DNA of 64,000 nt from a bacterium. Its GTDB lineage: Bacteria > Margulisbacteria > Marinamargulisbacteria > GCA-2716485 > JAYNIM01. Where the stretch lies: positions 38,113 to 102,112 of the forward strand of contig JAYNIM010000006.1 of the NCBI GenBank assembly GCA_038109055.1, written 5' to 3'. Of the stretch, positions 46,367 to 52,117 are shown piece after piece. Under the pieces are notes generated by a model. The model made no database searches, had not been told where the DNA came from, and saw only the letters and a program-made list of their open reading frames with translations. Both the position numbers and the translations under genes were made by a program. Each line of letters begins with the position of its first letter. The first letter of the stretch is position 1.

Positions 46367-48661
46367 TTATTTTATATCCAAAAAATAGCCACTTTCCCAA
46401 TCAATCAACTGTTGTATACGCTCTTGATATTCTGGTAAATAGGCCAACACAAAAGCTAATTCTGCCTTGGTTAAATAACGATTTTGATCTCCATCAAGTT
46501 TTTTAAAATTTGTTAATCCAGCTTTAAACAACAAAGGCCCAATTTCACCAGCTGTTAATGGAAGTTCAGGTTTAAACGTTGCATCAGGAAAAGCCGAAAC
46601 CAAGCCATTTTTGAGGGCTGAAAAAATATATTTAGCATAAGGATGATCTTTTGGAACATCATCAAAAACAGCCTCTTTAACATCACTTACGTCAATACTT
46701 GAATCTGACAACACCAAAAGCTTGGCCATAAATCCGCGATCAATATAGCGATCTGGATAAAAATTTTGCTCGATCAATGAATCATCTCCAAATACACCCA
46801 AAGTCGCCAAAAAGTTAATCTCACGTCGCGCATAAGTGCCATCCTTGACATCCTTAAAGGTCATAAGCCGCAAGACACGCGTGGTATAATACAAGACTCT
46901 ACCTTCCTTAAGTTCTAATTTAATTGCCAACAAATTCTTACCTACCTTTAAGTCAACCGGCATAGAAAATTCACCTAATTTATCGATATAAACAGGTTGG
47001 TCATTAATAAAGAGTCGTTGAACAAAGGGAGATGCATCCCCAAGCAAACGAATCTTACGTTTATAATGGACATGCTTATCATTGGGAAAAAGCAACGAAG
47101 CAAAAAAAGAAATAGATTGAACTTCACTACGATTACCCGCAATATCTTGAACAGAAACCTTAATACGACTCTTGGTCTTCCCAAGAGGTCCTGGCTCTAA
47201 AAAACGTGGCATAGGAACCGTAGATTTCCAAAGCTGTGGGACAAAGGGAGACACTGTTTTAACACCAAAATTAGACACATCATTACGCTCTAACTTTAAA
47301 GGAAGTCCATCAAGACTACATTCAACACTTTTTAATCGTTCATTACTAAGCAAAGAGATCGTTAATACACCTTTTCCAGGAACAACATCTATAGTAAATT
47401 GAGGGGCCTGATCATCCCCATAAATAAACACACTATCTGACTGTAAAGAAAGTTCCATATTTTCATCCAATGTTTTGGCAACAAATTCATTCTTACCATT
47501 ATTTAAAGACAACTGTTTAATAGACCATTTTCCAAATTTATCAGTTTGAAATGTATGTACCAACACATCATTATTATATAAATAGACAACAGAATTTTTA
47601 GTCCCAACACCGTGCAAATCAACTGTCTTCTTAAAAACCAATAACTCTTCATAAGCAGGAATAACAATAACAGGTCGATTGGGTCTGGCTACCCCCAAAA
47701 AAGATACCCATAAAACGTGTTGCATATCATAAGGAAAACGATTTTTTTCCAACGCATAATCCAAGGCCATACGGTACGCACGCCCACCCACAAAAGACAA
47801 ATCAGAAAAAATAACCCCAACGCCTAAGCGATAAACATCTAAATCTGTCGAGGCTCGCAAAGATAAAATCTCTTGAACCTGCCAATCAAAGGCAAATCCT
47901 AATGAGTTTTCAAAATGAGAATGCATATAAAAATGTAAATTATTAAACGATGTATGAAACCCTAGCTGCAATACAGGAGATAAATATCCTTCATTCCCTC
48001 CTTCAAAGATCATTCTTGAGCTCAATAAATCTCTAATCGAAAGAGATAAATCAAATTGATCCATAAAGGGATAAACAGAGTGCTTAGAAAAAATAGCCCC
48101 AACATCCATCCCCACAGAATATGCAGAAACAGATTTATCAGAATAAAAATTTAAAAACTTTAGATTACTACCAAAAGAAATTTTATCAAAACCATAACGA
48201 TCATATATGCCATAACCAAAACCAGTCCCAAAAAGACGCCATCCTGAATAAAATGTTTCCTTTTCCCATATTTGCTGAGCGCCTTGTAAAAACTGTGTTT
48301 CAATCGCCCCTTGATTCTGCACATCCCCATAAAAAAAACCCATATAACCATCTTTTAAATGAAATTTACGTAACCAAGGTCCTAAAAATTGCAACGGTAC
48401 AGCAGCTGAAATCATACGATAATCAAACGAATTCAAAATAGATTTATACCCGATACCTAAAGGAAGCCCTTCCACGGTTGCTAAAATTGCTGGATTATTT
48501 AAAAAAGAAGAAAAATCACCTAATATAACTGGATTATCCACACCCAAAGCCGATGTACCTGCACCCACCATTTGAAGCTGTGGAGAATCAAGAGAATAAC
48601 TACCAGCAAAAAGAAACTGCTGCACAAAAAATAACAAAAATACACCTAATTTAAACTTCAA
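46367..48661 (-). CDS. PorV-like beta-barrel + Ig-like domains + C-terminal SLH domains
   Basis: Signal peptide; GAGTSALG...DFSSFLNNPAILA (PorV/FadL-type start); Ig-like G.N repeats; SLH motifs FKDV..INFLATLGV..FYPDRYIDR and FDDVPKDHPYA...FKPELPLT. TTG start abuts the upstream TAA. Confidence 0.7.
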   Translation of the reverse strand: MKFKLGVFLLFFVQQFLFAGSYSLDSPQLQMVGAGTSALGVDNPVILGDFSSFLNNPAILATVEGLPLGIGYKSILNSFDYRMISAAVPLQFLGPWLRKFHLKDGYMGFFYGDVQNQGAIETQFLQGAQQIWEKETFYSGWRLFGTGFGYGIYDRYGFDKISFGSNLKFLNFYSDKSVSAYSVGMDVGAIFSKHSVYPFMDQFDLSLSIRDLLSSRMIFEGGNEGYLSPVLQLGFHTSFNNLHFYMHSHFENSLGFAFDWQVQEILSLRASTDLDVYRLGVGVIFSDLSFVGGRAYRMALDYALEKNRFPYDMQHVLWVSFLGVARPNRPVIVIPAYEELLVFKKTVDLHGVGTKNSVVYLYNNDVLVHTFQTDKFGKWSIKQLSLNNGKNEFVAKTLDENMELSLQSDSVFIYGDDQAPQFTIDVVPGKGVLTISLLSNERLKSVECSLDGLPLKLERNDVSNFGVKTVSPFVPQLWKSTVPMPRFLEPGPLGKTKSRIKVSVQDIAGNRSEVQSISFFASLLFPNDKHVHYKRKIRLLGDASPFVQRLFINDQPVYIDKLGEFSMPVDLKVGKNLLAIKLELKEGRVLYYTTRVLRLMTFKDVKDGTYARREINFLATLGVFGDDSLIEQNFYPDRYIDRGFMAKLLVLSDSSIDVSDVKEAVFDDVPKDHPYAKYIFSALKNGLVSAFPDATFKPELPLTAGEIGPLLFKAGLTNFKKLDGDQNRYLTKAELAFVLAYLPEYQERIQQLIDWESGYFLDIK

Positions 48662-51600: not shown

Positions 51601-52117
51601 CACTTACATCCGAATTAACAACAGAAAGTGTGACTTTTGGATAAATAGTATTACCCGCCAAATTAAATCCTACACTATCTGTAGCTCCAGTAGAGAGTGA
51701 CTTTAAAGAAACCTTAACTTTAATAGTAAAATTAGCCACTAAGGAAGGGATATTGCCCGTAAACGTCATACCAGTACCCGACAAGGGTGTTTCCGTCCCA
51801 TTAACAACAAAAGTGGCACTTTCAATCGTTAATAACGAAGCGATAGACTGATCATCATCCCCATCAACCACCTTTAAAAAGTCAAAGTCAATCCGTGAAA
51901 TCGTATCAACAGGAGCTGAGGAAACATCATTAGAACTGCAGGAAAATGTCCATGTCACAGATTTTGATTGCAATTTAGCATTATCTGCTCCAGCATCATG
52001 AGCTAGGCCTGTAACACTAACATCTGAGTACAGAAACCCAGAAAACATGAAAAAAATAAACGAAAGAAATATCGTTACTAAACGAAAACTCCAAAAAAAC
52101 CGTTGCTTAGCTAACAT
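48662..52117 (-). CDS. Large exported beta-rich protein with a C-terminal T9SS-CTD/FlgD-Ig-like domain
   Basis: Signal peptide; C-terminal FYPNPF...VFNHNGRFI...PGMYVCKV..KSVQLVVY. Confidence 0.7.
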   Translation of the reverse strand: MLAKQRFFWSFRLVTIFLSFIFFMFSGFLYSDVSVTGLAHDAGADNAKLQSKSVTWTFSCSSNDVSSAPVDTISRIDFDFLKVVDGDDDQSIASLLTIESATFVVNGTETPLSGTGMTFTGNIPSLVANFTIKVKVSLKSLSTGATDSVGFNLAGNTIYPKVTLSVVNSDVSAGNVVSVVFPSSDGAVSTAQKVFVKGISGFEILRLRGKFPSLARLFPSENAVMLMVSLNIPAGTDDLKLSSLQLYKQVENDDALKKVLLVRRDYLATLPNFTNEIAYPSPNTSVLQDGGSDLIDSLDGSVLTNSLLSFSSIDMPLLSGGNRQAFYVIYLLKDNLTLPTVNYKCKLNSFVLKDSDDSLIDLNGAPLIDESRRSQLVLGTDIFDYEPEMEFEVVGFSAMDLSKPGIQTAGDPSLQNIVFGAANKNIPILSFKMKAFQNPMDLKSLIIRSRAVNDENDQGFFTFGSEGYNKINKVYLYKDQGVVGDFDSADELLFSANVENDSPNTYTLDLSSVPIVFSLDSDRNFILAYDIGAGLMQQTSNGNKVQALIAGATAVLNSAVENGFAPNIDIALSGVDADTPATALETAESVLFIQASVVSLVDTHGILPALSFSSQPIYEGQRQLPFLQVRLKNDTSPITDATISFGSGNDADFSSSYGVKRLYLYNEAGVLLGSQKVTDFVSNSFNLSDIFLPQTTFQGADGNDYNTLTIKADIGQKASQDSLFNMQFTGISGQNITFAGLVPQPLMPVTFNVTAFPLQVTANVVSGASINNDPGGVSPVMLNMYLKNNGSIPIKLVSVTPKVYFEKIDGIDISGSFNFDRVASSDDFNVAENDTLIIAPNTLKRISRRVMYKDVVRYYTGVAYLDADFRFKLENRDEDNFDFQRYEESEDIWKTNLSFYVDGQLNPANGVLVLKQEDQLELGMYPSYISAVYYRDIYHPENRSFTSEDRFFTRTAVQEGGHFCIDIVSGNVSLDYASLELRYQGEVMTQLASGVKNIFGYYVDRALNRITIYQLPGTDGEEGEILMTVNDDMGNTLDVTQIKFMSSTNLRSNRALFYPNPFVLDQTDKRLTFGLNLSKKATLDFYVFNHNGRFIWSSQIPLSNTRIGYNYFSHEFLALENVLTPGMYVCKVLITDVDGVRISKSVQLVVY

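Follow-up and report, generated by a model that had tools for sequence, protein, structure and literature searches.

The DNA analysed here is a stretch of 64,000 nucleotides (the window; positions 38,113 to 102,112 of contig JAYNIM010000006.1, assembly GCA_038109055.1) from an uncultured member of the Margulisbacteria, a Terrabacteria phylum next to the Cyanobacteria. On its minus strand lie two adjacent genes, which we read as a cargo and carrier pair related to type IX secretion systems (T9SS). The upstream gene (48662..52117) encodes the cargo, a protein of 1151 amino acids (aa) with a signal peptide, an acidic passenger of repeated beta-sandwich units and a type A-like C-terminal domain (CTD). 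The downstream gene (46367..48661), starting with TTG, encodes the putative carrier and anchor, a 764-aa protein with a signal peptide, a PorV-family barrel, three Ig-like domains and an SLH module. Both open reading frames had been reported in an initial annotation made from the sequence alone. We found them at the same positions, with the TAA of the cargo gene directly abutting the TTG of the barrel gene in the same frame. The motifs noted there were also confirmed, reading YPNP, FNHNG and PGMY in the cargo and GAGTSALG and NNPAILA in the barrel protein.

In 15 of the 24 orthologous loci scored for this junction, the two genes overlapped by 1 or 4 bases. The in-frame junction was not conserved across the orthologues, suggesting translational coupling. 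A read-through fusion was ruled out by the out-of-frame overlaps in most orthologues and by the barrel protein's own leader. Promoter and terminator scans gave sites no more frequent than in shuffled sequences.

The cargo begins with a likely Sec signal peptide (about residues 1–31, boundary set by eye; 52025..52117, minus strand). This basic and hydrophobic N-terminus was its sole hydrophobic stretch (hydropathy windows 7–17). The passenger (48980..52024, minus strand) consists of repeated units with a conserved motif of the V.LY.D.NG.G.F/D..D..L type. In the 33-row alignment of orthologues, the proteins were 1014–1449 aa long, shared ~23% identity, had a median isoelectric point of 4.4 and carried repeated beta-rich units. 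Passenger length among the relatives varied from ~760 to 1500 aa, and no catalytic motif was seen in the alignments. The passenger had no Pfam, NCBIfam or PDB assignment, and its Atlas matches did not exceed 0.81. The full-length cargo had no NCBIfam match and a single Pfam match, to a chance model. Among 34 members of the cargo family, Pfam returned mostly CTD-type models, with FlgD_ig in 10/34 and passenger matches in at most two members.

Single-sequence searches of a large protein set returned the query alone for both the cargo and the barrel protein, and a pattern scan with the lone barrel protein found no relative. The relatives were detected by profiles and whole-genome searches. A search of representative proteins gave 53 proteins, mostly of 700–780 aa, without names or context.

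The CTD (residues 1047–1151; 48665..48979, minus strand), which in this protein stays just under the cut-off of TIGR04183, is predicted to bind the barrel. The ~100-aa C-terminal domain of T9SS type noted in the initial annotation was supported in the orthologues, with 28/30 orthologous CTDs matching TIGR04183 at E ≤ 0.01. Two other proteins of the same genome reached the cut-off of this model. The orthologous CTDs also matched a PorU C-terminus model (20/30), PF18962 (17/30), CHU_C (5/30) and FlgD_ig (4/30). TIGR04131, the model for type B CTDs, was absent from the matches of the 30 orthologous CTDs.

The barrel protein was modeled with AlphaFold2 from a 30-row alignment, with a mean pLDDT of 86. 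The model has a plug and 14 long strands (residues 20–326; 47684..48604), then three Ig-like domains (residues 327–599; 46865..47683) and three helical SLH-like units (residues 600–764; 46370..46864), all encoded on the minus strand. The prediction of a PorV/FadL-like barrel at the N-terminus was borne out by the structural searches. With VIA-align, the top matches were the PorV chains 8gl6_F (Z 29.9, root-mean-square deviation (rmsd) 4.2 over 279 aligned residues) and 6h3i_F (Z 29.2), above FadL (Z 27.8). With Foldseek, PorV (8gl6_F) was the first of the barrels, with a TM-score of 0.56 on the target, at overall rank 31 behind Ig matches. By sequence, the likeness was weaker: the top PDB match of the barrel profile was PorV (E 0.027), and the barrel alone weakly matched PorQ (E 8e-4). 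The PorV/PorQ family model NF033709 was matched at E ≤ 0.01 by 18/30 orthologous N-terminal domains (best 1e-14), and its cut-off was passed by other paralogous barrels in 12/41 genomes.

The Ig-like domains gave SiiE/Bap Ig matches and weak Big_13 and Glucodextran_B matches. The SLH module, likely to bind the cell wall, matched PF00395 over two stretches with 45.1 bits, above the cut-off. Ig-like repeats followed by C-terminal SLH motifs had thus been correctly recognized, as had the domain order of barrel, Ig and SLH, the reverse of that in OmpM. Because 14 strands bring the C-terminus back to the periplasmic side, the Ig domains probably form a periplasmic stalk carrying the SLH module. Among the PF00395 proteins of the genome, this was the only one with a large barrel, and no SLH-first porin, as in canonical OmpM, was found among them. 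Three further proteins of the genome are candidate wall binders: (i) a 610-aa protein of two successive Ig-SLH units (G000:C1:159461-161293), resembling the C-terminal half of the barrel protein; (ii) a 165-aa protein with SLH, a coiled coil and a hydrophobic tail (G000:C1:505482-505979), one gene behind exbD/tonB-like genes; and (iii) a coiled-coil protein of 948 aa that contains an insert resembling FlgD or a CTD (G000:C1:313102-315948).

The barrel is predicted to bind the cargo CTD on its outer loops. A complex of the two was modeled with a score of 0.83 in three runs, compared with 0.00 for the best of three controls, giving a confident predicted interface. The runs shared at least 92% of their contacts, and the partner pLDDT was at least 88. 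In the calibration, the mark set for this score was reached by 116/157 solved complexes and by 2/215 mismatched pairs. The contacts in the model lie on long loops at the barrel end opposite its C-terminus, which, from our reading of the strand order, would place the CTD outside the cell and the Ig-SLH part inside. On the barrel, the predicted loop contacts include F60, T103 and G121 (numbering of the mature protein). PorV is described as binding the CTD of its substrates on long outer loops (PMC10994853). The CTD residues at the predicted interface were more conserved than the remainder (0.58 vs 0.42, permutation p 0.002).

The two genes were conserved neighbours, as the reading in the initial annotation requires. 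The barrel protein was matched in 38/41 related genomes, in a few of them by SLH or partial matches alone. A CTD gene lay directly upstream of the barrel gene in 30/30 loci of the relatives; six of these fell outside the CTD profile, yet had E ≤ 1e-26. In a second, overlapping scan this was so in 36/36 orthologous loci, the 37th locus being a different CTD-barrel pair. From other Margulisbacteria classes we examined 13 loci, picked from the best profile matches, and a cargo homologue was upstream in all 11 whose contig reached far enough. Because related genomes are not independent, these counts describe conservation and are not a statistical test. In its own class the pair sits among housekeeping genes, with a yebC-type start motif in 27/37 loci. 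One relative, G013, holds two copies (G013:C3, G013:C48) of the otherwise single-copy pair. In four genomes from two families of other classes (G064, G067, G056 and G073; loci L157, L143 + L158, L167 and L168), a fliK-like gene follows the barrel gene. There flgE/F/G, fliM, fliP and further flagellar export genes come next where the contig allows. This flagellar neighbourhood occurs in 4/13 loci from other classes, and is absent from the locus of the genome studied here; we take the flagellar linkage as a lead.

The pairing extends beyond this locus. The genome (1.8 Mb, 93% complete) encodes eight CTD genes and eight PorV-like barrels, which form seven adjacent pairs, with the CTD gene upstream of its barrel in six of the seven. 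Four of the CTD genes encode small CTD-only proteins; the other four encode this cargo, a GH81 glycoside hydrolase and two S8 proteases. None of the six remaining paired barrels gave an SLH match. Paralogues from this genome were themselves used in building the broad profiles for barrels and CTDs, so that their scores are circular, and the support comes from independent searches. In the relatives, at least 33 of 78 other CTD matches directly preceded a listed barrel, compared with 0.03 expected by chance. This is a floor value, counted on 78 non-orthologous CTD matches from genomes G000–G040 (133 further matches being outside the count) and on 137 of 150 listed barrels (13 short or partial ones were left out, and 56 further ones were outside the count). 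Seventeen unpaired CTD loci were inspected. Five had an adjacent barrel, eight were large orphans of 550–860 aa, three were CTD-only without a barrel, and one, at a contig end, was unscored.

The eighth barrel (L118:3198-4151; G000:C3:139197-140150) stands alone, immediately following batD-like and TPR genes. Likewise unpaired is the eighth CTD gene, for an S8 protease (G000:C4:51050-53416); relatives of this protease also lack a neighbouring barrel, and most of the eight large orphans resemble it. The orphan barrel is a candidate for a shared carrier of this protease. The four small genes encoding only a signal peptide and a CTD (150–196 aa) are each followed by a PorV-like barrel (L037:7881-10239, L038:907-2297, L039:643-4882, L040:909-13886, L043). 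Large exported proteins adjoin three of the pairs: at one pair a protein of 777 aa with a YadA head repeat, at another a protein of 3713 aa followed by one of 3032 aa that weakly matched peptidase G2, and at the third a protein cut by a contig end. The CTD-only proteins may be adaptors that mount fibre-like adhesins. An 823-aa S49 (SppA-type) peptidase (L119:1996-4467; G000:C1:542995-545466) weakly matched the PorV-like barrel profile in its N-terminal part (E 6.6e-5).

As a potential translocon we detected a single-copy giant barrel candidate of 1735 aa (G000:C3:50238-55445; L036:1239-6446), with repeated inserted domains weakly like those of SprA. It was matched in 37/41 relatives, its profile in 79/81 genomes of the phylum, and the family members are about 1300–1900 aa long. 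The alignment kept 24/30 loci, leaving out five incomplete ones and one with an unresolved residue. The partial model (residues 540–1735; pLDDT 79, pTM 0.52) had 35 consecutive strands of at least 10 residues in the last 865 residues. SprA has 36 strands; with its unmodeled N-terminal part, the giant barrel may exceed this count. The top four Foldseek matches were SprA chains, with E values from 8e-9 to 5e-8, the next match being at 3e-5. In a wide VIA-align search SprA was not among the 50 best rows, the best being TonB-dependent receptors (Z up to 17.6), which does not exclude a SprA fold because the model covers residues 540–1735 alone.

The SprA model TIGR04189 gave only weak matches, around model positions 567–714, in many cases to proteins of 1500–1860 aa. 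One protein with Pfam SprA_N matched the giant-barrel profile with E 1.3e-4, over 4% of the profile. The nearest Atlas cluster bears the SprA name at 0.87, to be taken as a lead only. In other classes, the giant-barrel gene was tail to tail with a gene for a CTD-bearing S8 protease in 4/9 loci, and in two more a CTD gene lay no farther than about 3.4 kb away. From these results we regard the 1735-aa protein, with moderate confidence, as SprA-like. The "dedicated barrel/cargo pair" of the initial annotation held as far as the two are conserved partners with a predicted interface; it is not self-contained, being one of seven pairs beside a candidate SprA-like translocon.

The annotation had also called for a genome search for sprA and porK/L/M/N/U. 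Apart from the weakly SprA-like giant barrel, none of the looked-for genes was recognized. A search of the genome turned up no GldK, GldM or GldN and, for GldL, a single fragment with E 0.09; it had no positive control, and very divergent forms could escape it. With the same proviso, GldM exceeded the cut-off in 0/55 genomes of the class and GldN was matched in 0/81 genomes of the phylum. The peptidase C25 domain of the PorU sortase (PF01364) was not found in the genome; two of the 81 phylum genomes have it, showing that the search is able to detect the family. PorP_SprF barrels (PF11751) were not found in the genome either. For the envelope, the genome encodes two Omp85 proteins, LpxC and a CsaB-like protein (E 2.9e-45, below the family cut-off), which fits a diderm envelope with a pyruvylated wall polymer.

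Taken together, we consider it probable, at roughly 60%, that the cargo leaves the cell by Sec and then a SprA-like pore, is captured uncut by its own barrel, and is held to the wall with it by the SLH module. Both proteins would cross the inner membrane by Sec, and an Omp85 protein would insert the barrel into the outer membrane. The phylum-wide giant barrel would then let the folded cargo across the outer membrane, and there the cargo's own carrier would catch the CTD. As the PorU sortase was not found, the CTD would stay uncut and the cargo would be held non-covalently. The Ig stalk and SLH module would bind the complex to the pyruvylated wall polymer. Speculatively, wall binding could act as a ratchet that pulls the carrier off the translocon, instead of a GldKLMN motor. 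The cargo may perhaps be a structural surface-coat protein, since it is conserved phylum-wide, has acidic repeats and lacks a catalytic domain. Surface display with the barrel anchored to the wall through a periplasmic Ig stalk, as first proposed for this locus, is supported by the fold, the predicted interface and the synteny; binding, export and attachment are predictions.

Several results weigh against this reading. On the side of the CTD, the isolated domain (last 105 residues) scored 21.7 bits on TIGR04183, with a cut-off of 23, and it also matched flagellar FlgD. At the conserved terminal Lys site of type A CTDs the cargo has Gln1147, so the Lys of "K..LVV" in the initial annotation was not that residue; the site is Lys in ~79% of 29 orthologues. 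Regarding the complex, barrel-side interface residues were not more conserved than other barrel residues (0.46 vs 0.49, p 0.76). PorV-CTD complexes such as 8GL6 have already been solved, and a passing score may reflect likeness to them rather than binding. The score also carried no specificity information among the eight paralogous barrels. The SprA matches of the giant barrel had TM-scores of 0.14–0.22 with an rmsd of about 30 Å, its profile had no PDB sequence match, and the TIGR04189 cut-off was passed in 0/41 genomes. In Bacteroidota, release from the translocon is described as requiring the motor (PMC10994853), and here no motor was found. Finally, the tether is not constant. The protein in G020 (315 aa) is a barrel without a tether, and the G028 and G065 proteins (406 and 404 aa) have a barrel and one Ig domain. 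The Ig-SLH part annotated as a tether is present in the protein studied here, while in these relatives it is missing or shortened. As the pair persists there, the tether appears from these genomes to be dispensable. In G064, G067, G070 and G088, barrel proteins of 1300–1400 aa carry three Ig-SLH modules.

The closest known arrangements are the PorE-PorP-PG1035 system of Porphyromonas gingivalis and the type B CTD/PorP-SprF pairs of Flavobacterium johnsoniae, as far as they are described in PMC9143113 and PMC12618676. In these too, the gene of a 14-stranded FadL-family barrel is directly preceded by that of its cargo. They further share a kept CTD, a wall tie on the periplasmic side, and several paralogous pairs per genome with orphan cargo, features that for the pair studied here are in part predicted. 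The PorE-PorP-PG1035 account describes an uncut CTD protein on a dedicated, wall-tied barrel (PMC9143113), and the orphan barrel and orphan S8 protease recall the orphan cargo and shared shuttle described for type B CTDs (PMC12618676). Unlike in those systems, the CTD here is type A-like and the barrel belongs to the PorV/PorQ family, with no PorP_SprF match. The wall tether is a fused Ig3-SLH part instead of a separate PorE lipoprotein, the host belongs to the Margulisbacteria, and the motor was not found. Judged by domain content, the pair is neither of the type B/PorP kind nor, with its reversed order, an OmpM.

Likeness to the SprA-PorV translocon (PDB 6H3I, 8GL6; PMC10994853) comprises the PorV-like fold, the CTD predicted on the outer loops and a giant single-chain barrel that is weakly SprA-like. 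In the Bacteroidota as described, all type A cargo is carried by a single PorV and released by the GldKLMN motor, whereas here almost all CTD genes come with a barrel of their own. Also unlike SprA-PorV, the barrel of this pair, if bound to the wall, could not roam, and the sequence of the giant barrel is remote from that of SprA. By analogy, the two proteins would work like a T9SS carrier and cargo, outside a canonical T9SS, whose motor, ring and sortase were not found.

The pairs PorU-PorV and PorZ-PorQ, in which uncut CTD proteins are described as held on barrels (PMC5562754), offer another comparison. They share with our pair a large protein with a type A-like CTD, predicted here to stay uncut, a PorV/PorQ-family barrel and likeness to the PorU C-terminus. 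In an alternative reading, which we judge unlikely, the cargo would belong to the secretion machinery, as its equivalent of PorU, PorZ or a PG1035-like cap; held on its barrel, it would process, chaperone or guard other CTD cargo and would not be a coat. It is single-copy and phylum-wide, and in its own class sits among housekeeping genes, in contrast to the paralogous pairs, which vary. In size it resembles PorU, and its profile aligned to PorU residues 1017–1151 (E 0.023), beginning slightly before the CTD. The gene porU lies directly upstream of porV. PorU and PorZ are described as retaining their CTDs and sitting on PorV and PorQ (PMC5562754). Unlike PorU and PorZ, however, the cargo has no C25 sortase domain and no beta-propeller family match, and the barrel has a periplasmic Ig-SLH extension. 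A gingipain-like C25 domain was not found elsewhere in the genome either, and the two phylum genomes with one have it elsewhere. The PorU match is restricted to the C-terminal end, and the passenger varies in length and sequence, as given above, with no catalytic motif seen.

Export of the cargo by Sec and a SprA-like pore was also weighed against a different route, which seems to us improbable. The tail would then be a FlgD-like Ig domain that binds the barrel, with export through, e.g., the flagellar export machine, or through the barrel as a two-partner channel. The tail's match to FlgD models is about as good as its match to PorU, FlgD_ig matches occur among the cargoes, flagellar export genes follow the barrel gene in the four genomes named above, and the SprA likeness of the giant barrel is weak. 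Nevertheless, the flagellar neighbours are confined to two families and do not occur in this genome, and the N-terminus of the cargo is of Sec type. A folded protein of 125 kDa is too large to pass a plugged FadL-type barrel of 14 strands, which conflicts with the barrel as its own channel. The giant barrel, in turn, co-occurs phylum-wide and adjoins CTD genes.

With OmpM/SlpA tethers of diderm Terrabacteria (10.1101/2021.05.31.446380), the protein shares an outer-membrane barrel joined to SLH via a periplasmic stalk, with a CsaB-like gene in the genome. It differs in having the barrel first and SLH last, an Ig stalk, and a PorV/FadL-type barrel with a dedicated protein partner. We consider it very improbable that the protein serves chiefly to tether the outer membrane to the wall or as a channel of FadL type for small molecules, a reversed OmpM with a neighbour that is only co-regulated or binds incidentally. 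SLH-barrel tethers are presented as the main system of these phyla, with OmpM homologues reported for Margulisbacteria (10.1101/2021.05.31.446380), this is the genome's only PF00395 protein with a large barrel, and FadL scored just about 2 Z below PorV; yet the constant element is the CTD gene plus barrel, kept where SLH was lost (G020, G028, G065), six other paired barrels have no SLH match, and the CTD-barrel interface prediction passes. A tether role could be a second function of the barrel protein.

We found no paper on type IX secretion or a T9SS in Margulisbacteria, nor on this system, in a literature search that covered main texts and few subscription papers. A CTD is mentioned in a Cloacimonadota protein (PMC8542988), indicating that CTDs outside Bacteroidota had already been noticed. 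A 2025 paper calls type IX secretion exclusive to Bacteroidota, with one PorV serving all type A CTDs (PMC12618676). The T9SS-like module in a lineage not known for a canonical T9SS, as the initial annotation put it, was supported for the CTD and the PorV-family barrel; motor, ring and sortase were not found in the genome. The findings suggest surface display of a type IX-like kind that lacks the known motor, in a phylum other than the one from which type IX secretion is described. CTDs with many cognate PorV-family carriers and a SprA-like pore, without a recognisable motor or sortase, would test both the exclusivity to Bacteroidota and the need for the motor. They would raise the question of whether folded proteins can be exported through such a pore without GldKLMN, and of where the system originated. 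The cognate pairs are a natural set for studying CTD-carrier specificity, and possibly a source of orthogonal surface-display tags. What is new is the arrangement and its home, not the principle, since Bacteroidota already provide examples of the parts and of the anchoring logic.

More tentatively, and with less than even odds, the Margulisbacteria may have a motor-free and sortase-free type IX-related system, with a single giant pore of SprA-like kind and, for each type A-like cargo, a dedicated PorV-family carrier. The phylum-wide pair would be a core surface coat fixed to the wall by Ig-SLH, with the pull coming from wall binding or a repurposed flagellar rotor. On this view, type IX secretion would have the translocon, the carrier and the CTD as its ancient core, with the PorU sortase and the Gld motor added later.

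Elsewhere in the window, envelope-glycan genes lie near the cargo-barrel pair. They comprise genes for a Wzy_C membrane protein resembling O-antigen ligase, for its TPR partner and for a galE-like product, and one for a DUF5693 membrane protein (37485-41966 and 56822-58801). The GC skew was negative in all 2-kb bins of the window (1-64000; −0.07 to −0.36), a strong strand bias. Near the contig end there is a recombinase-like open reading frame (62679-63240), a C-terminal fragment whose end runs into a tRNA-like sequence, suggesting an integration site.

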